64,000 bases of DNA from the NCBI GenBank assembly GCA_036253495.1, contig GCA_036253495.1_4125.1, one strand, 5' to 3'. Source of the DNA: a phage. Below are positions 7,559-41,589 of this stretch, piece after piece; position 1 is the stretch's first letter, and the number at the start of each line of letters is the position of its first letter. The position numbers and the translations under genes were made by a program. The notes beneath the pieces are model-generated. The model was not told the DNA's origin, made no database searches, and worked only from the letters and a program-made list of their open reading frames with translations.

Positions 7559-7567
7559 ACGATTTTA

Positions 7568-11032: not shown

Positions 11033-11095
11033 TTATTAATCCTTTAAGCCAATAAAGTACTGGGTCAGTACTGAAATTTTATATAGAAATATTTA

Positions 11096-11124
11096 TCCAA
11101 AAGAAAAGCACTCCGAAGAGTGCT
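11096..11124 (-). terminator. Intrinsic terminator downstream of gp25-like gene
   Basis: Perfect 7-bp stem agcactc/gagtgct with C(UUCG)G tetraloop on minus strand, followed by U-run. Confidence 0.65.
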
Positions 11125-11131
11125 TAGTAAA

Positions 11132-11527
11132 TTATAATTTAGATGTTGTGAATGTCGCCATTCTATTATTACTTCTGGCATCAAACACTATAGTTAGTTG
11201 TTCTAATTTATCAAGCATTACATACTCTAAAATTATATCCAAACGATAACCATATTCAACATTACTAACTGTTAGATTTTTTAAATTCAAACGTGGGTCT
11301 AATGAAATAATTCTACGAGCGTCAGCTTCTAAAAGATTTTTTGTATTATAACCATCAAGTTCAAAAATCAAATCCCAAGCAATGAAACCATAATCAGCAT
11401 CAAATGCTCTTTCACCTTTCTTTGTATTGAAGTGGTTCATCAAATCCTGTCTCACCAACTCAGCATCATACAGAGTTTGTGTTTTACCCACAACAGGAGT
11501 AGAGAAACCTTTAAAAACTATTGCCAT
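11132..11527 (-). CDS. Baseplate wedge protein, gp25-like (GPW/gp25 family)
   Basis: 131 aa. Motif KGERAFDADYGFIAWDLIFE matches T4 gp25 KGSRPFDPEFGCDLSDQLFE. GAGGA RBS. Confidence 0.7.
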   Translation of the reverse strand: MAIVFKGFSTPVVGKTQTLYDAELVRQDLMNHFNTKKGERAFDADYGFIAWDLIFELDGYNTKNLLEADARRIISLDPRLNLKNLTVSNVEYGYRLDIILEYVMLDKLEQLTIVFDARSNNRMATFTTSKL

Positions 11528-11540
11528 AGACTTTCCTCAT

Positions 11541-12029
11541 TTATACGGATTCAACAATCCTTGCCATTTTTTCAGCACGAGAAGTTGTTTGACGATACCA
11601 AGCGGAATCACGCATTTCTTTGCCAGCGGTTTTATAATCACCACGACCCAATGCTGCCATTGCTTTCTTAAAGTTCAATACACGAGATTTACCCATTTGG
11701 AATACCATCATCCAAAGTACACGTTGTACTTGAATAGGTGCAGTCATTCCGAATTGATCGTAAATCTCTTTTGCTTCTCTGTATGCATTTAGGGAATCTT
11801 TTTGAAGTAATGCTTCAGCTTCAGCTTCCGTTAGCCCTGCACTGAAATTTTCACCTTTTAGTACTAAGTGACCATATCCAATGGTATCTAGTCCTAGGCT
11901 ATCTTTATAAACTCTGAATTTACCATTCTTGAAATAACCTAATTTAGTTTGGAAAGCAATAGTACCTTCAAACTCTTTAATTTCTTTCAAATACTGTGCA
12001 TCATCAGGTTTAATTTCCCATTTACTCAT
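11541..12029 (-). CDS. T4-type lysozyme (GH24 endolysin-like)
   Basis: 162 aa. KDSLGLDTIGYGH, MVFQMG and SAWYRQTTSRAEKMARIV align with T4 lysozyme KDTEGYYTIGIGH, MVFQMG, SRWYNQTPNRAKRVITTF. Confidence 0.85.
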   Translation of the reverse strand: MSKWEIKPDDAQYLKEIKEFEGTIAFQTKLGYFKNGKFRVYKDSLGLDTIGYGHLVLKGENFSAGLTEAEAEALLQKDSLNAYREAKEIYDQFGMTAPIQVQRVLWMMVFQMGKSRVLNFKKAMAALGRGDYKTAGKEMRDSAWYRQTTSRAEKMARIVESV

Positions 12030-12044
12030 ATACTTCTCCTATAA

Positions 12045-12067
12045 TATTTATTGGATAAAATATTTAT
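12045..12067 (-). promoter_or_regulatory. Putative T4-type late promoter(s) for lysozyme gene
   Basis: Two ATAAATA cores on minus strand 15-40 nt upstream of the lysozyme ATG. Confidence 0.3.
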
Positions 12068-14727
12068 TGACATGCCTCAATTCTACGTGCCATTAACTCT
12101 GCACGACGAGTTGTTTGACGATACCAAGCGGAACTACGTATATGAGCAGCAGCACCACGATAATCACCTTTAGCTAAACATCCAAGCATACCCTTGAATT
12201 TTTGAACTTTGTATTTGCCCATTTGGAATACCATTTGACATAGTACTTGTTGAGCAATAACAGGTGTTTTTAAATCCCAGGCCGCATATATTGATTTGGC
12301 ATCATTAATTGCTTGCGTACTGTCTCGTACTAATATTGCTTCAGCTTCTGCTTCAGTTATACCACCAGAAAAATCTTCACCTCCGACAATAAGGTGTCCA
12401 TATCCAATTGTAGGGAATCCACGGCTATCAATATAACGCCAGAATTTTCCATTTCTGAAATATCCAAGTGCTGTTTGATATTGGATAGTACCTTCGTGTT
12501 CTTTAAGTTCGGATATAAATTGGGAATCACCCGGAGCAACTTTCCATCCAACGGCAGTTTTATCAACATTACCTACATTATAATTTTGTTCAACTTTTGG
12601 AGCGGTTCCTGCATTTCGAGGCTTACGTTCTCTACGACGAGGAACATGACGAGAACCACGTTGTGAATAACCAGTTCCAATAGTTCGTATGCGAGTTGAT
12701 ATTACCAATTCATCACTATCAGCAGATGGTCTGACCACATCTTTAGGGTTATTTTGTGTTGATGGTTGACCACCAATTAATGTTTTATTCGCCGCAGCAG
12801 AACCCTGACCAGTTACAGTTGTGTAGAATAATCCAGGATCAACTGAACCACTAAAACCATAGATATTAGATGAGCGAACTCTTATTTCAAATCGTAATAT
12901 ACCATTAGCAGTTCCTATTACTTGTCCTTTTTCAACAACATCTTTATTGAATAGGTCAGAAGTTAAACCATAGAAAACAGATTTATAACCAGATTTATGC
13001 TCAACAATAAGAGCATCACCACTGATACCAACAATCCCACCATCTGGTGCAACCACACTTCCACGGGCTTGAATTTCCCATCCACTACTATCACGCTTGG
13101 TTCCATTCTCGGTCGTTACACCCTTACCCCAATAACCATTCTGGCGAATAGTACCGCTACATGGCATAAGCATATGCAAACCTTCAAACGTCTGCGAATA
13201 ACCAGTCATTCCTGGTTCAGCCGCCATTAAATCTTGTGTTTGAACTTCACTTGTCTCTGGGGCATAATTTACAAATTGAATTGCTTCTGTTTCTTGTTGC
13301 TCTGCAAGTGTAGGTTGAACATCATTTGCTGGTTGTGGCTCAACTGGAGATGTTGTACTACCTTGACCACCACCACTTATACCAGGATCAACCCTATCAC
13401 CGTGGTTTTCTGCATCTTTCCAGTTAGCAATCATATGAATGTGGTCATTAAGACCCACTGATGGAGTTTTGAAGTCAGGAGCCATGAATGCAGCACTACC
13501 ACTATTACCTGCACTATCAACCGTTAGGTTTTGACCACCACCACTAATGTTAACGGATGAACCACCAATAACGTTTGCTGAGGATGAACCTTTAATAGAT
13601 GCAGTTGACCCAGCCGTAATATCAGTACTGCTACCACTTTGAAGACGTAATGAAGCACCAGTAACCAAACGAAGATCAGCACCAGAATTAATTACAACCT
13701 GACCATTGACCTTAGCATCCAAATTACCGACCAATTCCAGTTTGGTATTTCCACCAACACGAGTATTGAAGTCTTGCCCACTTTCAATATTATAAGAACG
13801 ACCTGCAACCATGTTAATATCTTGACCTGCACGAATGTTTATGTTTTTATCACAGTGCATTTCAATATCACCATCGCCAGTGAATTTAATACGAGCCGTA
13901 CCATCACGGTTAATTAATAAAACATTACCAGTGGCTTCAGAAATAAGAAGTTGTGCACCACTACGTGTTTTAATAACAATACCTTCATTCTTTCTGGAAC
14001 CAACACGAGTGTCATTAACTGGGTTGTTAAATTGTGTGTCTTGGTATCCATCAGGGTCTTGATCCCATGTTGGCTTGGTCAATTCTTCTTCTGTATATCC
14101 ATCATCAAGAATAAAACTATTACCACGAGGTGTACTCATACCATATACAGTACTGGTTGTTTGACGAGTACTGCTGCGGTTTGCAACACCTGCTTCATCA
14201 TCGTATAATAAGTTTTGTTTTTTCAATCCTTCAACAGCAGGAACGTTAATATATTTGTCTTGCATGTCAGTTGTGATTGTGTTACGATCATAATCAGTTA
14301 CTGGTAATGGCATATCAGTACCATTGTAATTGGTATCCGCAGTTGCCATTCCAGGAACCATTGTATTCATACGTTGGTCATAAACACATCCAATCCAGTA
14401 AGCTTGGAATGTACGTGCTTGTGCAAAAATAACAACAACAGTACATCCCACATCTGGTGGAACGGCCCAAAAACCATAACCCTTTGGATATTGTCCATAA
14501 CTATCTGCACTCGGTATTCCTGGAGTTTTGCCAGCAAACGGAGCCATATAAGAAGCTTCAATCCATGAATCTTTAGAGTTTTTATCACTTTGTGAACCTT
14601 GTATCCATACTTTTAGCTTACCAGATTTCGTAGGATCACGGTTATCCATAACGGTTGCTAATTGTGGATAAGATGGGTCAAAACGACCCAACTGTTCCTT
14701 TGCATACTTTTTACTTGTATCTGCCAT
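12064..14727 (-). CDS. Baseplate central spike, gp5-like, with C-terminal GH24 lysozyme domain and a degenerate M23-like domain
   Basis: 887 aa. N-terminal OB/spike-like region, Gly/Ser-rich beta-helix-like repeats (residues ~290-400), M23/LytM-like segment (…IVEHKSGYKSVFYGLT…GQVIGTANGILRFEIR) lacking the HxH motif, and C-terminal ~160 aa paralogous to the adjacent lysozyme (TIGYGH, MVFQMG, SAWYRQTTRRAELMARRI). Confidence 0.75.
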   Translation of the reverse strand: MADTSKKYAKEQLGRFDPSYPQLATVMDNRDPTKSGKLKVWIQGSQSDKNSKDSWIEASYMAPFAGKTPGIPSADSYGQYPKGYGFWAVPPDVGCTVVVIFAQARTFQAYWIGCVYDQRMNTMVPGMATADTNYNGTDMPLPVTDYDRNTITTDMQDKYINVPAVEGLKKQNLLYDDEAGVANRSSTRQTTSTVYGMSTPRGNSFILDDGYTEEELTKPTWDQDPDGYQDTQFNNPVNDTRVGSRKNEGIVIKTRSGAQLLISEATGNVLLINRDGTARIKFTGDGDIEMHCDKNINIRAGQDINMVAGRSYNIESGQDFNTRVGGNTKLELVGNLDAKVNGQVVINSGADLRLVTGASLRLQSGSSTDITAGSTASIKGSSSANVIGGSSVNISGGGQNLTVDSAGNSGSAAFMAPDFKTPSVGLNDHIHMIANWKDAENHGDRVDPGISGGGQGSTTSPVEPQPANDVQPTLAEQQETEAIQFVNYAPETSEVQTQDLMAAEPGMTGYSQTFEGLHMLMPCSGTIRQNGYWGKGVTTENGTKRDSSGWEIQARGSVVAPDGGIVGISGDALIVEHKSGYKSVFYGLTSDLFNKDVVEKGQVIGTANGILRFEIRVRSSNIYGFSGSVDPGLFYTTVTGQGSAAANKTLIGGQPSTQNNPKDVVRPSADSDELVISTRIRTIGTGYSQRGSRHVPRRRERKPRNAGTAPKVEQNYNVGNVDKTAVGWKVAPGDSQFISELKEHEGTIQYQTALGYFRNGKFWRYIDSRGFPTIGYGHLIVGGEDFSGGITEAEAEAILVRDSTQAINDAKSIYAAWDLKTPVIAQQVLCQMVFQMGKYKVQKFKGMLGCLAKGDYRGAAAHIRSSAWYRQTTRRAELMARRIEACQ

Positions 14728-16877
14728 TACTCACCACCTGGGTTTATTATACTATCTTTACGTTTAAGTGCACGAGCGACAATAGCACCTTGAATTTGTT
14801 GCGTGAAAGTACCGTTTGTACCAAAATCATGAATTATTTTGTTTACGCGATAGATTGTTTCGTTGAATGTGGTTGGCGTGGTTATGTCCAAAATACCAGT
14901 ATTATCATTAATAGAAACAACTGGTTGTAATTTCAATAACAAATATGCTTCAGTTGAAATATAATTTGCATATTTGAAATCCTCTGGATTTATATATAAT
15001 GCTTCACCATTTACCAACATATCCAAATATTGAAGATATGCATGATCACCCCACCCCAACCAATATGGGTCACCAATTACACGCATATCCAACTTACACA
15101 TAAATGGACGGTTATAATAGTTGTCGCGTATTTTACGTCTGTCCATTTCATACGTACTACTATTATCGTTATCAGATGCCGATAAAGTTGTATGGTTGTT
15201 TGTAGCTTCAGTTGGTATAGTGAATATTTCACCCCTACGATCACCAATTCCATCAGCACCCATGTCATTTTCTTCATATACACTACGATAATCTTCAATG
15301 TATTCAGGAAGGACATGAACTTTGTAATTCATATAAGCATCTTGTTCTTCTTGATTACCCACACCCATCGCATTTTTTAATTGCTCATCTACTTCATTTA
15401 GTAATGCAGTTTGAGCTTGTGTTATAATTTCCCCTTTACTTCGTGCTTTTCTTATATCACTAGTCTTATTCCACGCATCTAATGGGTTACTATATTGAAC
15501 CCCTTGTATGGTTAATTCCTGTGATGCATGTGTACCACTTCTGTTACCTTGGTCTTGTATTGGACCTGGGTTACGTGTTGTAGCTACATAAAATTGCTGA
15601 TCGAAATTCATATCCAAATCTAATATTTCATTATTCAATCCACTGAATTGATAATTGTATATTTTCATTCTTAACTTTTCTTCATTATCTCTAGGGTCAA
15701 GATAACGTTCAGAGTTTTCTAGGAACGTTTCGAAGTTAAAGTTTTCTGGTTGTAAATCCGATTCATGAACAACATCACCAATTCGAAAACGAACAATATT
15801 AAAAATAACTTTATATACTGATGTATTACGTAAATTATCAAAACCAACATATTGTTTAAGTGGGATTATATTAACAAATTGGCGAACGCTAGTACTATCA
15901 CCTTCACGAACAGTACATGCATCAATAACATCATCAATTATTCTTGATATTGGTGTACTTGGATTCCATGAAAAGTTTTTAGAACCCTGTGAACCATTTT
16001 TTGTTGAAGTTACTTCAGTCATTTGTTTAGAATCATAGTTTATGAACATATCAGCAAGTTCAGGTGCAACTTTAAATTCAAAAAATTTACCTTCTGCCAG
16101 TTCTGGAAATTTCATACACAAATAACCATACTGTTGTTCTGACATTTCATTTAACTTATCTTCCAAATCATAACAAAATGCTCCAAATTGTGCAGCAGTA
16201 CATGAGAATGTTTCTTTTAATGTCCATTCTACGTTATCAACCAATGCAGCACGATTGTGTACTAAGTTAATGGTATATAACATTGTACTACCAGTTGCAC
16301 TGGCACTTGCTTTAACGTTGTTAATCTTCACTGACCAACGTTTTGTAGTGTTTGGTATGACTTGAGGAACACCATCTTCATTATAACCAATGAACTTTAG
16401 TTCAAGGATTAATGGTAAATCCATAAATTTATGATAACGAAGTTTATTACTTAATGATATCAACTCATCGTAAAAACTCATACTATTGTTTTCTGACATA
16501 CTTATTGAAGCAGTATTAAATGTATAGTTTGTTGTCATACCAGGAGTTGAGGGACCAGCTTGCGTCATCTGAACATTTGTGATATTATACTTACCAGTAA
16601 CGCCACTTTCAGTGATTACATAACGTTGGACTTCAGCATCTGGATTTTCCCAGAACATCTTAAAGTCATCTTTATCTAAGGCAAACAAGGTAAAGTGCCA
16701 CGTTGCTGAATTGTATTTTAATAAAACATTTTCATTGTCAATAATAAAATCAGAAATCTTTTTATCGTCATAAATTCTATCAGTATGTGTGCTTTGAATT
16801 GGTTTTGATTGTACGTTACTTACTTTAGCACCATATTTGTTACTCTGACTAGGGTCTAGTCCAATTTTAGTATCCAT
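14727..16877 (-). CDS. Baseplate hub-like structural protein (gp27/gpD position), hypothetical
   Basis: 716-aa ORF with GGAG RBS directly upstream of the spike gene. Assignment by position only. Confidence 0.35.
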   Translation of the reverse strand: MDTKIGLDPSQSNKYGAKVSNVQSKPIQSTHTDRIYDDKKISDFIIDNENVLLKYNSATWHFTLFALDKDDFKMFWENPDAEVQRYVITESGVTGKYNITNVQMTQAGPSTPGMTTNYTFNTASISMSENNSMSFYDELISLSNKLRYHKFMDLPLILELKFIGYNEDGVPQVIPNTTKRWSVKINNVKASASATGSTMLYTINLVHNRAALVDNVEWTLKETFSCTAAQFGAFCYDLEDKLNEMSEQQYGYLCMKFPELAEGKFFEFKVAPELADMFINYDSKQMTEVTSTKNGSQGSKNFSWNPSTPISRIIDDVIDACTVREGDSTSVRQFVNIIPLKQYVGFDNLRNTSVYKVIFNIVRFRIGDVVHESDLQPENFNFETFLENSERYLDPRDNEEKLRMKIYNYQFSGLNNEILDLDMNFDQQFYVATTRNPGPIQDQGNRSGTHASQELTIQGVQYSNPLDAWNKTSDIRKARSKGEIITQAQTALLNEVDEQLKNAMGVGNQEEQDAYMNYKVHVLPEYIEDYRSVYEENDMGADGIGDRRGEIFTIPTEATNNHTTLSASDNDNSSTYEMDRRKIRDNYYNRPFMCKLDMRVIGDPYWLGWGDHAYLQYLDMLVNGEALYINPEDFKYANYISTEAYLLLKLQPVVSINDNTGILDITTPTTFNETIYRVNKIIHDFGTNGTFTQQIQGAIVARALKRKDSIINPGGE

Positions 16878-16888
16878 GTGTTACTCCA

Positions 16889-17203
16889 TTAACCTACACT
16901 GCGTGTACCATTAAGGTATGATTGAATGCGTTGACTTGACGGTACTCTAATAGTTATTCCAGTTTGAAAGTTGTAAATCGGGTCTTCACCCAATAAATCA
17001 GGATTAAGTAAGGCGAATACATAATATAAACGCTCATTACCATACATTTCATACGCTAAACGCCACGGTTGGTGGTTGTACTTTGCAGGTATTTCATAAA
17101 AATCATCAGTATCTGCTGGAATTATGTCACGAGGTAAGGTATAATCCAAATACCACGTCTGTTTAACTTTTGCATAAGGTGAATATTGACTATAGTTTGA
17201 CAT
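16889..17203 (-). CDS. LysM-like baseplate/tail protein (P2 gpX / T4 gp53-type)
   Basis: 104 aa. Segment YEIPAKYNHQPWRLAYEMYGNERLYYVFALLNPDL…FQTGITIRVP resembles a LysM fold. Start overlaps upstream stop (TAATG), GGAGGA RBS. Confidence 0.4.
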   Translation of the reverse strand: MSNYSQYSPYAKVKQTWYLDYTLPRDIIPADTDDFYEIPAKYNHQPWRLAYEMYGNERLYYVFALLNPDLLGEDPIYNFQTGITIRVPSSQRIQSYLNGTRSVG

Positions 17204-17934
17204 TAAATGAATCCTCCATTGCGAAGCATATCACCACGCTTAAATGCGTTAAGATTAAACTTCTTAGTCATAAATTCTGATGTTGGTTGCTCTTCTAATT
17301 GAATAGTTACCGATATCTTTTGTGGAACCCACACTTCATCTTGTGGATTCATGTACCCAGAACTTCTTAATTGTTCAAAAAATTGTCTACTATCCATATC
17401 GGACAAATTAAAAGTACTGTTACTACTATCCAATGGTACTTGAATATAAGAAACATCATTTGGATAGGTAAAATTATATGATTTCATTACTACAGGAATA
17501 TCATTATATGTATAACGACCATACCCACTTAGTAATAGGATTGGTGGTGGTGCACCAGGAACAGCTAAATCGGGGTTATTAGCTGATGCAGCTTTTCTAC
17601 CAAAATCCATCAATGATACAGAGCGAATAAAATGCATACATGCTAAAGTGTATAGAGCTTCAGCAGCAGTATTTGCATAAAATTCACCTTGTATCGTGAA
17701 AATAGTATTACTTGTATTTTTATAGTTGTTATAGTTACTATTTGAATGCACAGGAGACTGTGTTTCATACTGAATACTTCTTTGTTCAGTGATTGTTGGC
17801 GTTACGGTCCATACCAAACCATTGGTTGGACGCAAAAACGATAGTAGTGTTGGGTTGGCTCCGTCACCAAAATCCCCATACACATAGTTAGCACCAGCGG
17901 CTTTAGGTCTTAGTCGGATTCGACGATCAATCAT
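17203..17934 (-). CDS. Hypothetical baseplate-associated protein
   Basis: Track ORF 17203..17961 begins at an upstream ATG with no RBS; the internal ATG at 17934 (MIDRRIRLRPK…) follows a GGAG RBS. Function unknown. Confidence 0.55.
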   Translation of the reverse strand: MIDRRIRLRPKAAGANYVYGDFGDGANPTLLSFLRPTNGLVWTVTPTITEQRSIQYETQSPVHSNSNYNNYKNTSNTIFTIQGEFYANTAAEALYTLACMHFIRSVSLMDFGRKAASANNPDLAVPGAPPPILLLSGYGRYTYNDIPVVMKSYNFTYPNDVSYIQVPLDSSNSTFNLSDMDSRQFFEQLRSSGYMNPQDEVWVPQKISVTIQLEEQPTSEFMTKKFNLNAFKRGDMLRNGGFI

Positions 17935-17967
17935 TTGTGTTACTCCATTACAAGGAAACATTTGAAG

Positions 17968-17975
17968 TATTTATA
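17968..17975 (-). promoter_or_regulatory. T4-type late promoter TATAAATA (minus strand)
   Basis: Exact TATAAATA on minus strand about 35 nt upstream of the baseplate operon start. Confidence 0.45.
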
Positions 17976-17978
17976 GGT

Positions 17979-18006
17979 GGGACAAAGCTGATTTTAGTGC
18001 TATAAT
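17979..18006 (+). promoter_or_regulatory. sigma70-like early promoter, GGGACA-N16-TGcTATAAT
   Basis: GGGACA 17979-17984, 16-nt spacer, extended -10 TGcTATAAT ending 18006. Member of a recurrent motif family (see findings). Confidence 0.5.
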
Positions 18007-18058
18007 ATTAGCGATGGCACACGGATTGTGCCTATTGGTCATTACATGGAGAGTTACA

Positions 18059-18898
18059 ATGATAAACAAGCCGAAGCGTAAGAAGTATCTGAATAACGCA
18101 GACTTATTACGTGAAATACATAAAAGTAAGATATCATACTGCTGGCTTTTGGATAAAAGTTATGGTATGTATGATTATATTGTGTTTCATGAGTCTGAAA
18201 TCACAGAAGAATTACTTGAAAAGGCAAAAGCAGCACGAATCAAACGTTTGAATAATGAAATGCTTGATAGTGTTCGCGAAAAAGAGAATATGAGTGCTAA
18301 GAAAGCAAAGGAATATGCTGATGAGCACGGTCTATTCGTAAATGATGTACCACTGGATGAAGTGGTGATTAGAGTTATCACTGATGAGCACATTCCACCA
18401 GATACACGAGTGAATTTTGAACCATTTAAACATTATATCGTTGATAATGAAGGTATTCTGTATGAAGTTGTTCGTTCACATTGGAAAGGCGACTTGGAAG
18501 ATGGCGATTTCTGCTTAACACATGGTAAAATCACAAATGAACTCGGTAAAATGTTCATTAAACTAGCCGAAGAGATCTCTCACAAATCTAACTACAGAAA
18601 TTATACGTATTTGGATGAAATGATGGGTGATGCTAGAATACAATTAGTTAAAAATGCACTTCTCTTTAAAGAGAGTATCTTGTATAAGAAAGATAAACCC
18701 GCTGTCCAACTAAATCCTTTCTCATACTATACGTCATTCGTTAACAATAGCTTCCGTTCTATTTTGAACAGTGAGAAGAATGTACGTAACATTCGCGACG
18801 ACCTTCTTGAGATGCATGGTTTTACACCATCACATACAAGACAGATTGAAATCGAAATGAATATGATTGAAAGGAAAAATGACGATGGCACTATTTGA
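18059..18898 (+). CDS. Late-transcription sigma factor, gp55-like (putative)
   Basis: Start chosen at ATG 18059 (MINKPKRKKYLNNADLLREIH) after GGAGAG RBS. N-terminus resembles T4 gp55 (…YNYVNNKELLQAI…). Adjacent to gp47/gp46 as in T4. Confidence 0.45.
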   Translation: MINKPKRKKYLNNADLLREIHKSKISYCWLLDKSYGMYDYIVFHESEITEELLEKAKAARIKRLNNEMLDSVREKENMSAKKAKEYADEHGLFVNDVPLDEVVIRVITDEHIPPDTRVNFEPFKHYIVDNEGILYEVVRSHWKGDLEDGDFCLTHGKITNELGKMFIKLAEEISHKSNYRNYTYLDEMMGDARIQLVKNALLFKESILYKKDKPAVQLNPFSYYTSFVNNSFRSILNSEKNVRNIRDDLLEMHGFTPSHTRQIEIEMNMIERKNDDGTI

Positions 18899-19916
18899 TA
18901 AAGCAATTACATTCACTGATATTCATTTAGGATTAAAGAATAACAGTAAGCAGCACAACGAAGATTGTTTGAACTTCATTAAATTTATGATTGATGAAGC
19001 CAAAAAGAAAGGTATTAAAGTATGTGTGTTTATGGGAGATTACTTCCATAACCGCAGCAACATTAATATTCAAACATTAAACTATGGTTTACAAATTCTC
19101 CAATTACTAAATGACAACTTTGATAAAGTTTACTTCTTAGTTGGGAACCATGACATGTATCATAAAAACAAACGCGATATTACAAGTATTAATATGGCAC
19201 AAGTTTATGAAAACATCGAGTTCATTAATGAAATTACTACAATCGACGATTGTACTTTCATTCCATTTATGATTGAAGATGAATACAAAATGCTACCTAA
19301 ATTACAAAGCAAATATGTATTTGGTCATCTTGAATTACCTGGATATTTGCTTAACAAAATGGTAGAAATGCCAGATCATGGCAAAGAGACTGAAGGTTCT
19401 TTTGGTGGTTGTGAGTATGTTTTTAGTGGGCATTTCCATAAACGACAATCAAAACTCACATCCAAAGGAACTCGTGTCATTTATACTGGTAACTGTTTCC
19501 CTCATAACTTCTCAGACACATGGGATGATGCTAGAGGTGTTATGATTCTTGAACACGGTTCAGAACCAACATTCAAATCATGGGATGCTGCACCGAAATA
19601 CAGAACATTTACTTTGTCAGAGCTACTAACTGATCCAAGTTATTACTTACAAGATAACTCTATCTCGAAAGTTCAGGTTGATATTCCAATCACAACTGAT
19701 GAGATTAGTTTTATTCGTGATACTTTTACTAAACTTTATAATATTCGTGAGTTTAACGTTGTTACAAGTAAACAAAGTATCAAAGAACTTTTGGAAGAAG
19801 GTGAACACTTTGAAAGTACTGAATCAGTTGATGAGATAGTTTTACAACAAATCATGGAAATTGATTCTCCAATGTTCGACAAGAATCTACTAATACAAAT
19901 CTATAGATCATTATAA
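18885..19916 (+). CDS. 47: Recombination nuclease subunit gp47 (Mre11/SbcD-like)
   Basis: Phosphoesterase motifs DIHLG, GNHD, GHLEL, SGHFH. Collinear with T4 gp47. Start at ATG 18885 by RBS spacing. Confidence 0.85.
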   Translation: MALFDKAITFTDIHLGLKNNSKQHNEDCLNFIKFMIDEAKKKGIKVCVFMGDYFHNRSNINIQTLNYGLQILQLLNDNFDKVYFLVGNHDMYHKNKRDITSINMAQVYENIEFINEITTIDDCTFIPFMIEDEYKMLPKLQSKYVFGHLELPGYLLNKMVEMPDHGKETEGSFGGCEYVFSGHFHKRQSKLTSKGTRVIYTGNCFPHNFSDTWDDARGVMILEHGSEPTFKSWDAAPKYRTFTLSELLTDPSYYLQDNSISKVQVDIPITTDEISFIRDTFTKLYNIREFNVVTSKQSIKELLEEGEHFESTESVDEIVLQQIMEIDSPMFDKNLLIQIYRSL

Positions 19917-19925
19917 GGGACACGG

Positions 19926-22073
19926 ATGTTAAACATTACACGTATAACAATGAGGAATTTCTTTTCCTTTGGTAATGCACCACAAGTTATTGATTTAAAT
20001 GGTGCTGACATATCTTTAGTACTCGGTCAAAACAATGATGCTGTCATTGAAGGTGGTGATAGTTCTGGTCGTCGTAACGGTGTAGGTAAAAGTGCAATTA
20101 TTCAAGGTCTTGTTTTTGGACTATTTGGAAAAAGTATTGGTAACGATATTAAAATTCCAAACTTAGTTAATAAAACAAATGCTAAAAATTGTGAAGTTAC
20201 CGTTGAGTTCGAGAAAGACGGTATACAATACCTTGTTGAGCGTGGGCGTAGTCCCACATATTTCAATTTCATCACTCTAGGTCAGGACAATAAAGTTCTC
20301 GATGAATCAAGAGGTGAAAAGAAAGATACACAAGAAGATCTAAATGAAATTCTAGGAATCTCTCAATTACTTTTTGAGCACATTGTAGTACTGAATGCTA
20401 ACGTTGAACCTTTCCTTGCTCTTTCTTCACAGAAACAACGTGATATGATTGAAGAGCTATTAGGTATTACCCAATTAACAGAGAAAGCTGAACTGTTAAA
20501 GGATATGAACAAAGAGTCAAAACGTTTAGCTGACCAAGAGAAGTTTAAAATTGAAACAGTTGCAGCAAGTAATGAACGCATTCAACGCAGCATTGAAACC
20601 TTACAGGAACAGGCTAATAAGTTTGAAATTGATAAGGCTAATAGAGTGCAAAAACTAAAAAGTGAATTGGAAGTATACAGTACTTTTGTATTTTCTGATT
20701 TATATGCTGCTGCTGAAGAGAAAGAAGAAGCACTTCTACACATCTCTAAACGTTTACAACTCGAACGTAGAGTTCAAGAACTTGCAGTGAAATATGATCA
20801 GTACGATAGAGAACTAGCCACTAATAAAAATATTATTCAGCATAGTATCGATAAATTAAAAACTATTGATATTGAATCTGAATTAAAAAACCATGAAGAA
20901 ATGGAACTGTGGAAACAACTAGAATCTATCTTAAAAGATAATCAGTTGCAAAAGAATTTCAAAACACAGAAACTAAATTCACTAAATCTTTCGTTGAATG
21001 CTCATATTAAATCTCTTACAGCAGAAGAAGAGAAATTAAAATCAGTTGAGGATAGTAAATGTCCACTTTGTTTATCAGAGTTGGAGCATAATGAGCATGG
21101 TAATGGTATAAAAGATAAGATTAATGATACTATTCGTCTAATCAGAGAAAATATAAGTAAGGTTGAGTTGGAAATTGCAACACTATCAGATGAAATCAAT
21201 GCAATTGAGATATTTGATATGCCCCCTAAACCTGTAACTTTCTATAATACCCTTACCGAAGCCCAAATGCATGACCATAAGCTACAAGAACTTATTAAAA
21301 AGAGTGAGGAAGAACAAATTAACATCTACCGTGATGAACTAATGTCTTCTTATGAGGCTCTTGATGCATTAGAAGTAAAGGAAGTTCCAGATGCGTTGAA
21401 TAAATCAGAAGTTAAAGAGTTAGAAATGACTTTTAACTCACTTACTCAACAACTTGAACGCGAAATGAACACAACTAATACGTTTATTAGTCAGATTAAT
21501 ACTTTAACAACCGATTCGTTGGTTCCTATTGATTATACTGACTTCAATAACCTTGAAAAATTGGCTAATCACCAAGATTTCTTAGTTAAACTATTGCTCA
21601 ATAAGGATAGTTATGTTCGTAAACGTATCATTGAACAAAATATCTCATATTTGAACTCCAGATTGCAGTACTATATTGATATGTGTGGTTCAGAACACAA
21701 TGTGGTCTTCTTGAATGACCTTAGTGTTGAGATTGAGAAGAGTGGACAGTACTTTGACTATAAACAATTGAGTCGTGGAGAACGAACACGTGTTAATATT
21801 GCATTATCATGTGCTTTCCGCGATACTTATGAATCATTATATCAAAGTATTAATATTCTTATCATAGATGAGATGATAGATCAGGGTCTTGATTCAAGTG
21901 GTGTTCTAAGAGTATGGTCAATCTTCCAGGATATGGCTGCTGTACGTGGTAAAAACGTATATGCAATATCTCACAGAGAAGAATTACTATCTAAAACAGA
22001 AAAAATCCTTAAAGTGGTAAAAGAAGACGGTTTCAGTACTGTTGAATATGCTACTCTTGATGATATTTTCTAA
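19926..22073 (+). CDS. 46: Recombination ATPase gp46 (Rad50/SbcC-like)
   Basis: N-terminal Walker A GRRNGVGKSAI, long coiled-coil middle, C-terminal ABC signature region (LSRGERTRVNIAL…IIDEMIDQGLD). Confidence 0.85.
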   Translation: MLNITRITMRNFFSFGNAPQVIDLNGADISLVLGQNNDAVIEGGDSSGRRNGVGKSAIIQGLVFGLFGKSIGNDIKIPNLVNKTNAKNCEVTVEFEKDGIQYLVERGRSPTYFNFITLGQDNKVLDESRGEKKDTQEDLNEILGISQLLFEHIVVLNANVEPFLALSSQKQRDMIEELLGITQLTEKAELLKDMNKESKRLADQEKFKIETVAASNERIQRSIETLQEQANKFEIDKANRVQKLKSELEVYSTFVFSDLYAAAEEKEEALLHISKRLQLERRVQELAVKYDQYDRELATNKNIIQHSIDKLKTIDIESELKNHEEMELWKQLESILKDNQLQKNFKTQKLNSLNLSLNAHIKSLTAEEEKLKSVEDSKCPLCLSELEHNEHGNGIKDKINDTIRLIRENISKVELEIATLSDEINAIEIFDMPPKPVTFYNTLTEAQMHDHKLQELIKKSEEEQINIYRDELMSSYEALDALEVKEVPDALNKSEVKELEMTFNSLTQQLEREMNTTNTFISQINTLTTDSLVPIDYTDFNNLEKLANHQDFLVKLLLNKDSYVRKRIIEQNISYLNSRLQYYIDMCGSEHNVVFLNDLSVEIEKSGQYFDYKQLSRGERTRVNIALSCAFRDTYESLYQSINILIIDEMIDQGLDSSGVLRVWSIFQDMAAVRGKNVYAISHREELLSKTEKILKVVKEDGFSTVEYATLDDIF

Positions 22074-22085
22074 TATAATGAATAA

Positions 22086-22102
22086 AGGGAGCCTTAGCTC
22101 CC
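22086..22102. terminator. Bidirectional intrinsic terminator between convergent gp46 and endonuclease genes
   Basis: Hairpin gggagc-ctta-gctccc flanked by A-run and T-run. The minus-strand gene's stop codon lies in the loop. Confidence 0.6.
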
Positions 22103-22585
22103 TTTTTTTATATCTAACATGTTTAATTTGCCGTCCTTAATAAGCTTCCTAGCCTGTTTTACACGAGCAGTAGTGTTGCTACAAGGGACAACTCCTAACC
22201 CTTCCAGAATCGCGTTTTGCTGCGTTGCTGGGAGCCTTTTAAACTTATTAACATCCACAGTTAATGCCGTGTGATGAATCACTTGCTCTTCTGGTGGAAT
22301 ATTATTGTTCTTTTCAAGATAATCTGCCAGATTTCTTAGTACTTCATGAAGAGGTTTATCAGTTAAATGACGCAAGTATCGATTGAAAGAGTTCTGCACC
22401 TTACCTTCCCATGCGTTAACCTCATTTTGTAGAACTTCTCTACAATGCTGGTTTTCGAAGTGATAGTGGTCGAGTACTGGTTTCTTAATCGGTTCCTTGA
22501 TTATAGGATCAATACCTTTTTGCTTTTTTAATAATTCATTTCTGTACGTAGCAGCTTCCTTACTATCTTTAAGTCTTCGTTTCAT
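22094..22585 (-). CDS. HNH / endonuclease VII-family nuclease (gp49-like, putative)
   Basis: 163 aa. LDHYHFENQ…NEVNAWEG resembles the endo VII core HLDHDHELNG…CNAAEG, but the zinc-binding Cys pairs are not conserved. Confidence 0.5.
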   Translation of the reverse strand: MKRRLKDSKEAATYRNELLKKQKGIDPIIKEPIKKPVLDHYHFENQHCREVLQNEVNAWEGKVQNSFNRYLRHLTDKPLHEVLRNLADYLEKNNNIPPEEQVIHHTALTVDVNKFKRLPATQQNAILEGLGVVPCSNTTARVKQARKLIKDGKLNMLDIKKGS

Positions 22586-22681
22586 AATGTGCCTTAGATC
22601 TAAGTTAGTTTATGAAATATTTATGAAATACATTCCTAAGAAATTTTTAAGTACTTTTTTATAAAAAAGATTAGATATTTT

Positions 22682-22709
22682 GAGACACTTTTAAATTGCG
22701 TGCTATAAT
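22682..22709 (+). promoter_or_regulatory. sigma70-like promoter GAGACA-N16-TGcTATAAT driving an ORF-free transcript
   Basis: -35 GAGACA 22682-22687, 16-nt spacer, TGcTATAAT 22701-22709. Confidence 0.55.
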
Positions 22710-22715
22710 GTTTCA

Positions 22716-23192
22716 TGTAGTACTGACAATCCTGTTGAATGCAGAAATGCATATAAATTAGAACCTAATCCACTCGAAAATGTAGAGGGTAGATGAGCAG
22801 TTCAACAGTGCGATGAGCAAAAGAAACCCGTTAGATGTGGGCATATTATGAACCCCTCACGGCGACACGGCTCAATAAAGAACTCCGATAAGCATACAGA
22901 GAGTTCCTCGATAGATGTATAAGGATCGCACCTTACCAGATATGCTAAGGGAGTTTGATGATTCATTTCATTAAACAGCCTGAAGTTTGATTGTATAGAC
23001 TTTCAGGTGAGTGTCAGGATGTTTAAGACTGACGACCGTTGCACATGACTGCGATAGAGAGAAACAGAGCAACCCGCTTTCGTTCTTAATATTTTTTACA
23101 ATATAATTACGTTTAAATTTTAAGAAATTCGCAATACAATAATACCGATGCCATCAGCGTCAAGAAACAGAGACTTAATTGTCTCTTTTTTA
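22716..23192 (+). ncRNA. Candidate non-coding RNA (~470 nt), unclassified
   Basis: Promoter-to-terminator interval with no ORF above 17 codons, locally higher GC, several hairpins. No tRNA-like cloverleaf found by eye. Confidence 0.3.
23169..23192 (+). terminator. Intrinsic terminator (weak), followed by a second GC-rich hairpin at 23199-23220
   Basis: agagac-ttaatt-gtctct stem-loop plus TTTTTT, then tcattcccc-tgc-gggggatga hairpin. Confidence 0.45.
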
Positions 23193-23283
23193 TTATCTTC
23201 ATTCCCCTGCGGGGGGATGAAATATCCTCAACAAATCCCGTCAAGTATTAAATCATTTAAAGTTCTTTATAATTATATTAAAA

Positions 23284-23365
23284 TGAATATGAGTTAACGT
23301 AGTTAACGAATATTCTTCAGCTAACGAATGAAATGAGTTAGATGAGTTCAATATAAATCAAATGA
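23284..23365. repeat. Cluster of short degenerate direct repeats (ATGAGTT / AGTTAACG / TAACGAAT / ATGAAT)
   Basis: ATGAGTT x3, AGTTAACG x2 in tandem, TAACGAAT x2, in an AT-rich gap between convergent terminators. Confidence 0.4.
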
Positions 23366-23424
23366 ATTCCTTCAAGAATAAATCTTTTAAGATCATAATT
23401 TCTTTCATCTACTTTGTAAGTAAA

Positions 23425-23467
23425 AACCCAAAAAAACAAAAACAAAAAACCAGCAACAATGTGCTGG
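23425..23467 (-). terminator. Intrinsic terminator for minus-strand genes 23481-24529
   Basis: Hairpin ccagca-caatgt-tgctgg followed on the minus strand by a long U-rich tract. Confidence 0.5.
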
Positions 23468-23480
23468 CTTCTTATGAGTA

Positions 23481-23642
23481 TTAGTGCTTCTCGTTCATCT
23501 TCTTTACTTTCTTATTGTATGCCTTAATAAGCATATCTCTGTCATTTACTGGCATATTAAGTAGAGTTGCATAATCGACATTATCTACATAAACAGCAGC
23601 ATCCATAAGGGCATTTTTAATATCTGATTTATTCAACTCCAT
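23481..23642 (-). CDS. Small hypothetical protein (53 aa), below the ORF-track cutoff
   Basis: ATG…TAA frame MELNKSDIKNALMDAAVYVDNVDYATLLNMPVNDRDMLIKAYNKKVKKMNEKH, 17 nt after the upstream stop and just before the terminator. Weak RBS. Confidence 0.35.
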   Translation of the reverse strand: MELNKSDIKNALMDAAVYVDNVDYATLLNMPVNDRDMLIKAYNKKVKKMNEKH

Positions 23643-23659
23643 ATCATCCAGAAGTTCTT

Positions 23660-24529
23660 TTATTTCTTCTGGGTTTGAGAAGAGAAGCTGAGATCGAAAA
23701 AATGAGTAGGGTCATACTTTAATCCAGTAAGTTCCCATTGATGCTGACATTCAATACATTCAACTTCCATTGTATGCGATACACCAATCTCTAGTACTTC
23801 ATCCATTTTCTCTCTGATTTGCTTGATCACTTCTTTTGATTGAGTACCTAACCATTCACTTATGAATTTCTTATCTGATACTTCATCACCATCAGGAGTA
23901 ATTACCTTATCAATAACTCCAGCAATCATATCAAAGTTTAGTTGTGCCATGTTTTCAAATACTTCAGAAAACATTTTAATTTTATCATCTTCAGAAATAT
24001 CAATAGTACTTTCAAGATACTTAGTTTTTTGCTGTTCAGCTAACATACGTTGAGAAAACTCTGAATATTCTTTCCAAGTAAGTGGTCTGAACTGAAGAGA
24101 CAAACCATTATTAAGATCAATACTAGGAATTTCAGTAAAAGATTCTGCCGTTTCCAATAGATAAGAAAGATCACGTTCAAAACGGCCTTCTTTGGAACAT
24201 GATGGACATACGACATTGACATCATAACTGGTTTCTTTGGATGCTAACTTGATAGCAATAAGAATTTGCTCAACATCATTGACAAAAAGCTCATCTGCGT
24301 TTAGAATGTTTGGTACACAGTTTTCGATAACAGATGACACTGCACTACCATTGAGTAACATATCAGGTGTATTGAGCATCATTTCGTCACGAGCACTACG
24401 AGCACAGACACCACATTTAATGCCTTTGCTCCCCAATACACCATCTTTGTACTGGAAAATGTTGTTAGTGACGAGTTTAGTACTAATTTCTTCGATTTTT
24501 GTGTATTTTGCTAACGGGTTCATTGACAT
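23660..24529 (-). CDS. Hypothetical Cys-rich (putative zinc-binding) protein
   Basis: Track ORF starts at TTG 24547; ATG at 24529 (MSMNPLAKY…) follows GGAGAAAG. Cys pairs CGVC, CPSC, CIEC. Function not recognised. Confidence 0.65.
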   Translation of the reverse strand: MSMNPLAKYTKIEEISTKLVTNNIFQYKDGVLGSKGIKCGVCARSARDEMMLNTPDMLLNGSAVSSVIENCVPNILNADELFVNDVEQILIAIKLASKETSYDVNVVCPSCSKEGRFERDLSYLLETAESFTEIPSIDLNNGLSLQFRPLTWKEYSEFSQRMLAEQQKTKYLESTIDISEDDKIKMFSEVFENMAQLNFDMIAGVIDKVITPDGDEVSDKKFISEWLGTQSKEVIKQIREKMDEVLEIGVSHTMEVECIECQHQWELTGLKYDPTHFFDLSFSSQTQKK

Positions 24530-33633: not shown

Positions 33634-34773
33634 ATGAACAAAGAGCGGTTTGTTGAAAGTATGAATGAAAAGTATTCGTCATTGGGAATTAACGGTGACT
33701 TTGATTTCTCAAATTTAGTTTTTAAGACAAGTAAGATGACCGTAAAATGTAACCACTGTGGTAAAGAAAACACAAAAAGTGCATTACGCCATTTGGAATG
33801 TACCTGCAAATGTTATTCAAATCTTTCACAGAAAATATCAAAAGACGAATTTATTGATAGAATGAATGAAAAATTTGGTGTTGGTGTTTATAAATTTGAT
33901 AAACTTTTCTTTTTGAATGTTAGGGATGTTATTGAAGTATACTGTTCCAAACACGAAGGATACTTTAAAACAACCCCATACAATATGAGTCGTAGTGTGA
34001 ATGGGTGTAACATTTGCATTCCAAATAAAAAAATGAATCATGATGAATTTGTTTATAGATGTAACGCGTTATATCCGTATTTGGATTTTAACCGAGTTGA
34101 TGAAAATGGTGATAAAATAACAAAATTTGTAGGAACAACAAAGTATATAAAAGTATGGTGTAATAGACATAATGGAATTTGGGATGTTTATGCAAATACT
34201 TTGTTGAAAGGTAAAAATCATTGTGGTATATGTACCGGACGCAAACTTAGAACCAAAGAACAATTTGTAGAATTAGCATCTAAGATTCATGATAACAAAT
34301 ATGATTATTCAGAAGTTGAATATAAAAATAGTGAACATAAGGTGAAAATTATTTGTACAGAATGTAATGAATCATTTTCACAACAGCCAAAAGCTCACTT
34401 ATCTGGTAGAGGGTGTCCGGTATGTGGGAAGTATGGATATCAACAAAATAAGCCAGGTTATTTTTATATACAAAAATTAACTCCAAAAAATATAAATGAA
34501 GTAGCAATTTATAAAATTGGAATTACTGGAGATTTATTCAGAAGAATGTATGAACAATCTCTACATTCAGAATATTTTCATGAGTTTATCAGAACTGAAT
34601 TCTTTAGTGATGGTATAAAACCACTGGAGTTAGAAACACTTATAAAAAAAACTATTACATGTGGAATAATAACAGAAAATGAATTACAAGATGGATTTAG
34701 TGAAACGATTTCATCAAATGATGTTTATGAAGTTCACAAAATCGTAAATAAATTTATAGAGAGTGAAAAATGA
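33634..34773 (+). CDS. T5orf172/GIY-YIG-like nuclease-domain protein with four N-terminal zinc-ribbon-like repeats (putative homing endonuclease)
   Basis: C-terminus PGYFYIQKL…VAIYKIGITGDLFRRM matches the T5orf172 (GIY-YIG superfamily) signature. N-terminal ~45-aa modules each carry a C…H…GC(P)xC pattern (e.g. VKCNHCG…ECTCKC; IICTECN…GRGCPVCG). Confidence 0.55.
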   Translation: MNKERFVESMNEKYSSLGINGDFDFSNLVFKTSKMTVKCNHCGKENTKSALRHLECTCKCYSNLSQKISKDEFIDRMNEKFGVGVYKFDKLFFLNVRDVIEVYCSKHEGYFKTTPYNMSRSVNGCNICIPNKKMNHDEFVYRCNALYPYLDFNRVDENGDKITKFVGTTKYIKVWCNRHNGIWDVYANTLLKGKNHCGICTGRKLRTKEQFVELASKIHDNKYDYSEVEYKNSEHKVKIICTECNESFSQQPKAHLSGRGCPVCGKYGYQQNKPGYFYIQKLTPKNINEVAIYKIGITGDLFRRMYEQSLHSEYFHEFIRTEFFSDGIKPLELETLIKKTITCGIITENELQDGFSETISSNDVYEVHKIVNKFIESEK

Positions 34774-35267
34774 AATATAAAAATTTACAAAAAATGAAAT
34801 ATTATGCTGTTCTTCATGGCGAAGAAGGGGATGACTGGGCTTTTTATAATTATGATAAATTAGTTGAAGGATATGCTTATAATTTTGATGATGATTATTA
34901 TCAATTAAGAATTCAATATGATGAATATATAATATTTTCTGACAATTTCTGCACTAACTCAACTTCCATTGGTATTGGATCTATCAAAAATGAACTTACA
35001 AATCAAATAGTAAAGTGTAGAAATAAATCAAATGAAGTTATTGTGTATACGGAAGGTGCAAACTATTCATCTGGTATGAAACTGATCGGACGACCTAATT
35101 TCGATAGTACTGACGAACTATTTCAAATATCAACAGTATGTAATATTGATTGGGATAAAGTCAAAGAAGCATTTCGTATATTGGATGAATTGAATGAGAT
35201 AATCAATTTTAAATATTATCTAACTAAACCATCTGAATCTCTAGAATTAACTAATTTACCGAAATAA
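34770..35267 (+). CDS. Hypothetical protein
   Basis: 165-aa AT-rich ORF in the accessory island; no recognised motif. Confidence 0.5.
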   Translation: MKYKNLQKMKYYAVLHGEEGDDWAFYNYDKLVEGYAYNFDDDYYQLRIQYDEYIIFSDNFCTNSTSIGIGSIKNELTNQIVKCRNKSNEVIVYTEGANYSSGMKLIGRPNFDSTDELFQISTVCNIDWDKVKEAFRILDELNEIINFKYYLTKPSESLELTNLPK

Positions 35268-35287
35268 CAATAAGGAGGTTAACACGG

Positions 35288-35638
35288 ATGTTAACTGTAT
35301 ACATTTTTAAAAAAGAAGAGTACTTAAAGAGTCAGTACTCAAAAATTGAGATCAATGTTCCTTATGGAACGTTGGTGGGTTATGATGAGGCTACGGAGAC
35401 GTTGTATTACAATGATGATCGTCTGGATTACAGTACTGATCATTTTATAGAAGATATATTGAGTACTGATTCAGAAGACATGTTGTATGAAGAATATATT
35501 GACAAATACAAAGAACGCATGTCGAAGTTACATGCTGATGCTCCAGTACTGAACACTCCTAAAACCCCATCCGAGTTTGATCCTCAAAATCCATTTCAAC
35601 GCCTGATAGATGCGGGTGTAAACTTCAGAATTAGTTAA
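35288..35638 (+). CDS. Hypothetical protein
   Basis: 116-aa ORF with AAGGAGG RBS; no recognised motif. Confidence 0.55.
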   Translation: MLTVYIFKKEEYLKSQYSKIEINVPYGTLVGYDEATETLYYNDDRLDYSTDHFIEDILSTDSEDMLYEEYIDKYKERMSKLHADAPVLNTPKTPSEFDPQNPFQRLIDAGVNFRIS

Positions 35639-35668
35639 TAATAAATATCTCCATACTAGGAGATATCT

Positions 35669-35977: not shown

Positions 35978-36017
35978 ATATAAATATGATATATATTAAA
36001 CAAAAAAGGATTTTTAC

Positions 36018-37628: not shown

Positions 37629-37631
37629 TTT

Positions 37632-38087: not shown

Positions 38088-38093
38088 AAATTT

Positions 38094-38121
38094 GGGACAC
38101 ATTGAGAAGTACTGATATAAT
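38094..38121 (+). promoter_or_regulatory. sigma70-like promoter GGGACA-N16-TGaTATAAT
   Basis: Same motif family as 17979, 22682, 42060, 50886, 50962 and 61008. Confidence 0.5.
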
Positions 38122-38123
38122 AG

Positions 38124-38163: not shown

Positions 38164-38185
38164 ATTAACACATGGAGATACAACA

Positions 38186-41579: not shown

Positions 41580-41589
41580 GGATAATATT

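Follow-up and report, generated by a model that had tools for sequence, protein, structure and literature searches.

A predicted family of large structured non-coding RNAs at dispersed sites in RaK2-like jumbo phage genomes, with a homologue in bacterial islands

INTRODUCTION

The GOLLD and ROOL RNAs are several hundred nucleotides (nt) long, fold into many helices and pseudoknots, are borne by phages and possess a promoter and a terminator of their own; they are usually single-copy and lie next to tRNAs. Here we describe an RNA that in kind joins these large ornate RNAs, predicted at positions 22680 to ~23345 of a 64,000-nt stretch of phage DNA (contig GCA_036253495.1_4125.1; the whole stretch is referred to as the window). 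It shares their size, their wealth of helices and pseudoknots, their phage carriage and their own transcription signals, but the Rfam models of GOLLD and ROOL give no match to it. Unlike them, it occurs as 4-6 dispersed and evenly spaced paralogues, carries a conserved module past the terminator and is held in common with a bacterial island. No description of this RNA family was found in the literature, and no database family was found for it. Large RNAs with so much conserved tertiary structure are rare, and those whose function has been solved turned out to be ribozymes, cores of ribonucleoproteins (RNPs) or unusual RNA assemblies.

Other described systems resemble the locus in its layout. 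The R-loop RNAs of T4 oriF and oriG and the ColE1 RNA II likewise start from a promoter that fires into a non-coding stretch followed by an AT-rich region; origin transcripts also share a promoter class tied to replication genes and several sites per genome, and RNA II is itself structured and about 550 nt long. In T4, middle-mode promoters serve oriF and oriG, and baseplate genes are found next to oriE and oriF. Known primer RNAs, in contrast, have no pseudoknotted invariant core, and at the present locus the terminator precedes the putative opening region. The HK022 put, EAR and rrn/lambda nut elements are comparable in standing at the head of long co-directional gene blocks, near terminators, with a hairpin followed by a conserved single-stranded box. 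The present RNA is ten times larger than these, its box CAAAYCYCGUCA is not boxA-like, and its best-conserved class has no downstream operon. The phi29 pRNA is also phage-encoded and structured, with a position-linked role in the DNA life cycle, but it is about 170 nt long, single-copy, unrelated in sequence and part of the packaging motor, and nothing links the present RNA to the portal.

Among jumbo phages, PA5oct, which is related to the RaK2 group, has four long non-coding RNAs defined by RNA-seq, ncRNA001-004 (PMC7318152). Like the present RNA they are ORF-free (containing no open reading frame, ORF), and they measure 240-620 nt and are highly transcribed there (PMC7318152). A profile of our family, run with nhmmer --max at E up to 10 on positions 7500-23500 of MK797984, the part with ncRNA001 and ncRNA002, gave no match.

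RESULTS

A self-contained transcription unit

Positions 22680 to ~23345 form a conserved non-coding unit, and we are highly confident that a single transcription unit, complete in itself, encodes a large structured non-coding RNA here. The window comes from an Asteriusvirus jumbo phage. It is collinear over its full length with positions 182,862-247,012 of Escherichia phage A4, a RaK2/121Q-like member of Asteriusvirus, and its positions 22400-23700 are 98.6% identical to A4. The unit lies on the plus strand and begins with a sigma-70-type promoter at 22680-22709, spelled TTGAGA/GAGACA-N16/18-TGCTATAAT, in which a -35-like TTGAGACA occupies 22680-22687 and an extended -10 TGCTATAAT occupies 22701-22709. 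A rightward promoter had been proposed here by the original prediction, which was made from the letters of the window, and a consensus scan agreed (11/12 match with the TG extension). Transcription would start at about 22715-22717. Across 52 homologues the -10 T..TATAAT is invariant and the -35 TG(A/G)(A/G)AC(A/G) is conserved. The same strand carries an intrinsic terminator at 23169-23192, where a stem-loop and U-run had been noticed and the terminator scan concurs; it is weak, reading AGAGAC-TTAATT-GTCTCT followed by T6, and its stem covaries (helix 17; 97% paired). Terminator-like sites numbered 4, against 0.4 expected. The promoter is kept in all copies, and the terminator likewise wherever a copy has one, namely in about half of the paralogue classes including that of the window copy. 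Same-strand promoter and intrinsic terminator, both conserved in homologues, thus mark an independent transcription unit of bacterial type. The predicted RNA measures ~480 nt to the terminator and ~630 nt with read-through. As had also been remarked, the locus is visibly GC-richer than its flanks (GC 0.36-0.47 over 22700-23100 vs 0.19-0.28 flanking).

The promoter belongs to a class that recurs genome-wide at about 20 sites and may be read by the phage's own sigma-70-family proteins. The 'divergent RpoD-like' TGAAACG promoters described in phages CBB and GAP32 are a match to this class; in CBB they lie mostly upstream of DNA-synthesis genes (PMC5259590). Promoters of the class, in the form (G/T)GGGACA-N14-TGnTATAAT, were seen in the window at ~17998, 38113, 50905, 50981, 56180 and 61027. 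At 329-338.5 kb of A4 (L013:~34030-43520) there are repeated cassettes in which a terminator hairpin GGTTGACTTCGGTCAGCC with a T-run overlaps a TGnTATAAT promoter; the stem TTGAC doubles as the -35, and each cassette precedes one of successive small early-type genes.

The conserved unit extends past the terminator. A 3' module at 23198-23243 on the plus strand consists of a 10-bp GC hairpin, TTCATTCCCC-TGCG-GGGGGATGAA, at 23198-23221 and a tail, CCTCAACAAATCCCGTCA, at 23226-23243, with the consensus CAAAYCYCGUCA. The hairpin is the second GC-rich hairpin of the original prediction, and the covariation count supports it (helix 18). It is rich in G.U pairs and has therefore been selected as plus-sense RNA, although it lies past the terminator in many classes. 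The CGT of the tail can pair with ACG at 22867-69 (helix 5) in 100% of cells, with changes that are one-sided only. In the A4-type genome the 3' module is found at the four RNA loci only, and each jumbo-phage match to it among viral contigs has a complete family RNA directly upstream; the few exceptions among these contigs are chance matches within coding sequence.

After the 3' module comes an AT-rich stretch (23244-23284) and then two distal plus-strand hairpins, A at 23285-23315 (GAATAT..GTTAAC-GTA-GTTAAC..ATATTC) and B at 23317-23345 (TCAGC-TAAC-loop-GTTA-GATGA, with a central purine-purine mismatch). Homologous hairpins, compared by eye and by script separately from the formal covariation count, stand 60-95 nt past the tail and occur beside these RNA elements only in 827 kb of related loci. 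The stems of hairpin B differ between copies (ATTC/GAAT, ATAC/GTAT, TAAC/GTTA, AATC/GATT, TCGC/GCGA, TTGC/GCAA), and its flanks are conserved as TTG-A-C ... G-G-CAA.

Covariation supports an elaborate RNA fold

The RNA core of ~450 nt (22716-23165, plus strand) comprises, from covariation scans and pair counts, a predicted set of at least 14 helices and two pseudoknots. For the formal count, 99 proposed pairs in 18 helices were scored over 52 distinct homologues, giving 4612 cells. Pairing was kept in 85.8% of cells, compared with 71.7% in shuffles and 40-45% with the partner column slid, and 65 of the 99 pairs had changes on both sides. The covariation score was 0.366, against 0.148 for shuffles (reached by 0/500) and 0.06-0.12 for slid partners; compensatory substitutions thus exceed both controls, as is generally looked for in structured RNA. 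Strand asymmetry points the same way: the fold z-score was -4.15 for the plus strand and -2.40 for the minus strand, and plus-sense pairing was 85.8% vs 81.3% minus-sense, with G.U accounting for 9.2% of cells.

Three of the local helices, P3 (22814-18/22870-74), P4 (22828-31/22859-62) and P11 (23050-54/23129-33), are paired in 100% of cells with multiple double changes. The others are P1 (22732-38/22802-08), P2 (22771-75/22785-89), P5 (22880-85/22901-06), P7 (22920-24/22931-35), P8 (22979-89/22996-23007), P9 (23012-17/23029-34), P10 (23083-89/23120-26) and P12 (23147-51/23157-61). Both of the local hairpins that the original prediction had pointed out, at 22979-23007 and 23012-23034, covary. 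Helix P12 (helix 16; GACGA/TCGTC seen by eye) was paired in just 30% of cells on the MAFFT alignment, because the other classes are out of register there. Helix P6 (CCTC/GGGAG) was dropped as unsupported.

An H-type pseudoknot spans 23038-23081. Its stems S1 (GTTGC 23038-42 with GCAAC 23069-73) and S2 (GAGAG 23057-61 with CTTTC 23077-81), helices 12 and 14 of the count, are paired in 100% of cells with repeated double substitutions: S1 appears as GTTGC/GCAAC, GTCAT/ATGAC, GTTAC/GTAAC and GTTGT/ACAAC, and S2 as GAGAG/CTTTC, ACTGG/CCAGT, GGAAG/CTTCC and AGAAG/CTTCT. A second, long-range pseudoknot within 22990-23140 joins the loop of P8 (ATTGTA, 22990-95) to a strand at 23135-40 (TACAAT) that abuts the 3' strand of P11. 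It is paired in 99.6% of cells (helix 10), and all 6 of its 6 pairs have changed on both sides, as in GATTGTAT/ATACAAT against GGTCGAAT/ATTCGAC. Between the helices lie invariant single-stranded or junction blocks (UCGAAAAYGUAG, AGAUGAG, GAAACCCGU, CACGGCAAUGCGGC, GAUAGA, AAGGGA, GACCGU and ACCCGC), so that the core mixes long invariant single-stranded blocks with class-specific variable hairpins. Several classes also have 5'-terminal hairpins.

A GATGAGCA direct repeat at 22792 and 22812 had drawn attention in the original prediction. The two copies are indeed present, but the repeat has no significance as such: the first copy alone is conserved, and the second is the 5' strand of the covarying helix P3, so the repetition is coincidental.

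Neither a coding region nor a known RNA

The gap between the neighbouring genes, 22586-23480, holds no ORF of 60 amino acids (aa) or more, as had been stated and as the ORF listing bears out; a statement that it holds only frames of 17 codons or fewer was mistaken, since mechanical ORFs of 54, 49, 43, 40 and 38 aa were found. The two longest, at 22802-22966 on the minus strand (54 aa) and 23148-23297 on the plus strand (49 aa), are unconserved. More generally, ORFs of at least 25 aa in 26 homologues vary in frame, start and extent, and none is conserved in frame or position; a conserved small coding frame had been named in advance as what would speak against an RNA. An AAGGGAG resembling a Shine-Dalgarno sequence with a downstream ATG was considered as a small gene and rejected, being unconserved among homologues. 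In Salmonella phage 7t3 (L006:1072-1717) and several Escherichia phage records, 3-5 opposite-strand 'hypothetical protein' coding sequences of 31-55 aa are annotated at the RNA locus, and these are almost certainly annotation artefacts.

It is hardly credible that the locus is a repeat acting as DNA alone (e.g. as protein-binding sites) or a small-protein gene. What speaks for this is that the boxes ATCAGCGTCA and AAATCCCGTCA do not vary and that there are mechanical ORFs of up to 54 aa; against this, the compensatory changes, which include G.U pairs, keep pairing and not sequence, and the ORFs shift frame and position among homologues.

The original prediction could assign the locus to no known RNA class, and our searches concur. 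Rfam 15 (4227 models, including GOLLD, ROOL, OLE, HEARO, introns, RNase P, 6S, tmRNA, riboswitches and EAR) gave 0 matches at gathering score over the whole window. Relaxed to E up to 10 on 22400-23700, the search returned nothing but sub-threshold matches of terminator-like kind; across 12 homologous loci no Rfam family recurred, and no sub-threshold match was consistent. ARAGORN found 0 tRNA or tmRNA genes in the window. Several likenesses were pursued and set aside. A group I intron is contradicted by the lack of an Intron_gpI match, the intergenic position with its own promoter and a different pseudoknot topology, the 5' strand of S1 lying just 7 nt from that of P11. In the hammerhead-like GAUGAG...GAAAC, the second GATGAGCA forms one side of a covarying helix, and no match came from Rfam. 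For the RNase P likeness (ACAGAG..ACCCGC) and the rrn boxA likeness (CUCAACAA), the conserved residues differ from the defining ones and no covariance model matched.

Rfam search, alignment with loci of related phages and in-silico folding were the computational checks that the original prediction had proposed, and all three came out in its favour: no family matched, compensatory changes went beyond the controls, and the plus strand folded with the z-score given above. Together with the conserved transcription signals and the lack of a conserved ORF, they make it very likely that the region is an autonomous gene for a large structured non-coding RNA. What goes beyond the original prediction is that the RNA is multi-copy and family-wide, that the conserved unit extends past the terminator and that a homologue exists in a bacterial island.

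Paralogues at conserved, spaced and co-oriented sites

A distant blastn search with 22660-23240 matched 72 phage records, all RaK2-like and each with 4-5 matching places, from phages of Escherichia, Klebsiella, Salmonella, Erwinia, Yersinia, Serratia, Pectobacterium, Cronobacter and Xanthomonas. Every RaK2-like jumbo phage examined has 4-6 copies, and the family takes up 2.5-4 kb of an otherwise tightly packed genome. Two motif scans of viral contigs brought the set to the 52 distinct sequences used above. Grouped at 73% identity, these make about 13 classes, which represent paralogues that are conserved within clades. A loose pattern, GACCGT-N28-40-ACCCGCTTTCG, run on metagenome and GTDB collections gave 240 loci, all of them chance matches except L118.

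There is no second copy within the window. The A4-type genome has 4 copies, every one of them on the plus strand: the equivalent of the window copy at 205.8 kb and paralogues near 65.4, 126.0 and 321.2 kb (the paralogue search covered 1-197,000 and 246,001-345,000, leaving out the last ~10.5 kb). The gaps are 60.6, 79.8, 115.4 and 99.7 kb, and points placed at random on a circle would give a minimum gap this large with p ~0.03. In Serratia phage BF the copies stand at 30.5, 93.0, 174.5, 258.8 and 335.2 kb of 357 kb, with gaps of 62.5, 81.5, 84.3, 76.4 and 52.5 kb (p ~0.005). All copies are co-oriented within each genome, including the window copy amid minus-strand genes. Paralogues within a genome are ~70% identical and each sits at a syntenic site; they are therefore separately maintained, unlike dosage copies that gene conversion keeps alike.

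The window copy belongs to a class set between endonuclease VII (endoVII) and the baseplate hub, an arrangement that is syntenic in every clade sampled (A4, 121Q, 7t3, GAP32, CBB, BF, Yen9-04 and metagenomic contigs). Its left neighbour is the minus-strand endoVII gene (22094-22585), and to the right of the gap a small minus-strand ORF (23481-23642) is followed by the baseplate-hub operon; A4 has the same neighbours, and its record annotates nothing inside the gap. The convergent operon of the small ORF and the baseplate hub ends, outside the RNA unit, at a strong minus-strand terminator (23442-23475; 14-pair stem and T-run). Its plus-strand face (23450-23467) is weakly terminator-like, so that read-through from the RNA unit would face this terminator head-on. 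No plus-strand gene lies downstream of a copy of this class in any clade sampled.

These surroundings bear on a reading of the RNA as a cis-acting element, the long 5' leader of the gene block downstream. By attenuation or in a riboswitch-like manner it would govern how far transcription passes its own terminator, or else, in the manner of HK022 put, EAR or rrn/nut leaders, it would make RNA polymerase terminator-resistant and so delimit middle-gene transcription domains of roughly 70 kb. In most classes a gene starts 15-40 nt past hairpin B, in clusters 8 and 9 the stretch from the RNA to that gene shows no separate -10, and the internal terminator after the core would fit as well; operon architecture could explain the regular spacing, and all that Klebsiella islands (see below) retain, namely the promoter, terminator and 3' module, lies upstream of a helicase-like gene. 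The most conserved class, that of the window, nevertheless has no downstream gene and faces a convergent terminator, which weakens any leader or antitermination role. In addition, the downstream genes are mutually unrelated, clusters 4, 5 and 6 have a good promoter of their own past the tail, and there is no Rfam match to EAR or other leaders. We consider such a role unlikely.

Three further observations concern the surroundings of the copies. HNH endonuclease genes lie 1-3 kb upstream of 2 of the 4 A4 copies (L009:12568-15189, L010:26258-26869), and the window copy adjoins endonuclease VII; the presence of endonuclease genes near the A4 copies may be coincidental. A perfect tandem repeat, TTTATGAAATA x2, lies at 22609-22630, within the 95 nt that separate the endoVII start codon from the RNA promoter, and may be part of a divergent endoVII promoter or operator. 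At 4.1-6.1 kb of A4, outside the window, a 2-kb stretch (L008:4139-6138) has no annotated coding sequence and is non-homologous to the RNA family.

A homologue in bacterial islands

A full-length homologue of the RNA was found in 2 of 5426 complete E. coli genomes (E = 5e-59), at L319:7885-8573 in the chromosome of E. coli LR-29-1 (NZ_AP027515.1) and also in NZ_CM130020.1; no plasmid homologue was found. The E. coli island is AT-rich, adjoins ffs and is bounded by an integrase gene disrupted by IS3; its cargo includes a resolvase and the candidate defence system PDC-M45 (DuOB, DUF488, mSLOG-DUF4326). ORF-free DNA continues past the RNA for about another 700 nt and carries iteron-like repeats, ATCGATCG.

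What the island shares with jumbo phages is the RNA alone, from promoter through tail. Neither the flanking DNA of the island nor the neighbouring proteins tested had jumbo-phage homologues: the 303-aa protein and the small ORF had no meaningful match among phage sequences, and the 257-aa protein had one weak partial match, in an unrelated Pseudomonas phage. The island RNA shares 80.6% identity with the copy that represents the endoVII-locus class in BF and retains 77 of 95 pairs. Compared with the nearest phage copy it shows 9 double compensatory changes, so its evolution has been subject to structural constraint.

Klebsiella, Raoultella, Yersinia, Cronobacter, Enterobacter and related genera commonly have proteins of this island type. 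Klebsiella islands (CP171495.1, L320:3310-3470; the same in L321 and L322) hold only the promoter, a ~75-nt remnant, the terminator and a degenerate 3' module; this deletion derivative stands upstream of a gene for a 498-aa helicase-like protein, in an island that also has CBASS (a cyclase and a two-transmembrane effector) and PDC-M45. In the Yersinia and Cronobacter islands examined, no RNA element was found.

Capture by an integrase-bounded island with no homology in the flanks, together with the multi-copy state and the HNH endonuclease genes near two A4 copies, is what one would look for in a selfish or mobile RNA element or its relic, such as a ribozyme-containing or guide-RNA-like module spread to intergenic sites and to the bacterial island. 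This seems very improbable: the copies are ancient and occupy syntenic sites in different genera, neither target-site duplications nor terminal repeats are present, none of the adjacent genes is for a transposase, reverse transcriptase, IscB or TnpB, and there is no match to group I introns, group II introns or HEARO.

DISCUSSION

Several lines of evidence suggest that each copy matters where it is located: the even spacing, the co-orientation, the retention of diverged copies at syntenic sites and the promoter class tied to replication genes. A positional role is further favoured by the element-specific GC hairpin, AT-rich stretch and hairpins downstream of the core, and also by the capture of the RNA alone by an island, where it was kept under structural constraint. 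On these grounds we favour, as a tentative reading, that each copy works at its own site of synthesis as an origin-associated RNA. Transcription of the unit would start from a promoter of the class found ahead of phage DNA-synthesis genes, and the multi-pseudoknot core would be recognised by a common phage factor, e.g. an RNase H, a primase or a helicase loader. Duplex opening and replisome assembly would take place at the adjacent GC hairpin, the AT-rich 40 bp and hairpins A and B, and the 350-kb genome would thereby have several co-oriented start sites at even spacing. The copy in the E. coli island would let an infecting jumbo phage amplify the island. The reading is modelled on ColE1 RNA II and on the T4 origins oriF and oriG, in which an unwinding element follows the promoter; at the present locus the promoter class is linked to DNA-synthesis genes, and the AT-rich 23244-23284 comes after the 3' module.

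A number of points weigh against an origin-associated role. Cumulative GC skew in the A4-type genome gave no signal at the four RNA sites and follows the gene strand only. A multi-pseudoknot core with invariant junctions exceeds any known primer RNA by far in elaborateness and looks more like a ribozyme or RNP RNA. In half of the classes, including that of the window copy, a terminator lies between the core and the putative opening region and should release the RNA. The co-orientation may simply follow from the ~94% plus-strand gene bias, and the spacing p-values of A4 and BF are non-independent because the genomes are related. Finally, Klebsiella islands keep only the promoter, terminator and 3' module, and the Yersinia and Cronobacter islands have none of the RNA.

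The main rival is a trans-acting RNA machine, that is, a ribozyme, an RNP scaffold or a decoy or sponge that might titrate a host defence or RNA-binding protein. Its paralogues would be sub-functionalised through the variable peripheral hairpins, and the 5' and 3' hairpins would stabilise the RNA. At least 14 helices, two pseudoknots and long invariant junctions are what catalytic or protein-binding RNAs typically show, the variable hairpins differ from class to class, 5'-terminal hairpins occur in several classes, and the window-class copy is a stand-alone unit. The homologue amid defence cargo (PDC-M45) in the E. coli island, and the CBASS of related islands, would suit such a role too. A diffusible product, in contrast, is not expected to show even spacing, strict co-orientation and separate retention of ~70%-identical copies; no partner protein gene is consistently adjacent, and Rfam shows no similarity to a known ribozyme or RNP RNA. 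We consider this possibility and the origin-associated role about equally likely, each by itself rather doubtful.

Taken more broadly, it is quite conceivable, if short of probable, that these RNAs form a new large phage RNA class whose core sets evenly spaced sites, as RNA-specified origins or as another position-dependent RNP or ribozyme, and that defence islands have captured it to sense or exploit jumbo phages.

The family is universal among the RaK2-like jumbo phages examined and regularly spaced, yet in the records examined it is unannotated or mis-annotated as tiny 'hypothetical proteins'; in practice, phage annotation pipelines should cease to call ORFs at these loci. The homologue in the bacterial island suggests that jumbo phages and mobile defence islands are connected in a way as yet unexplored. 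If the RNA acts in trans, it would be a candidate new ribozyme or host-takeover RNA; if instead it marks origins, it would give a first handle on how replication starts in 350-kb phage genomes.

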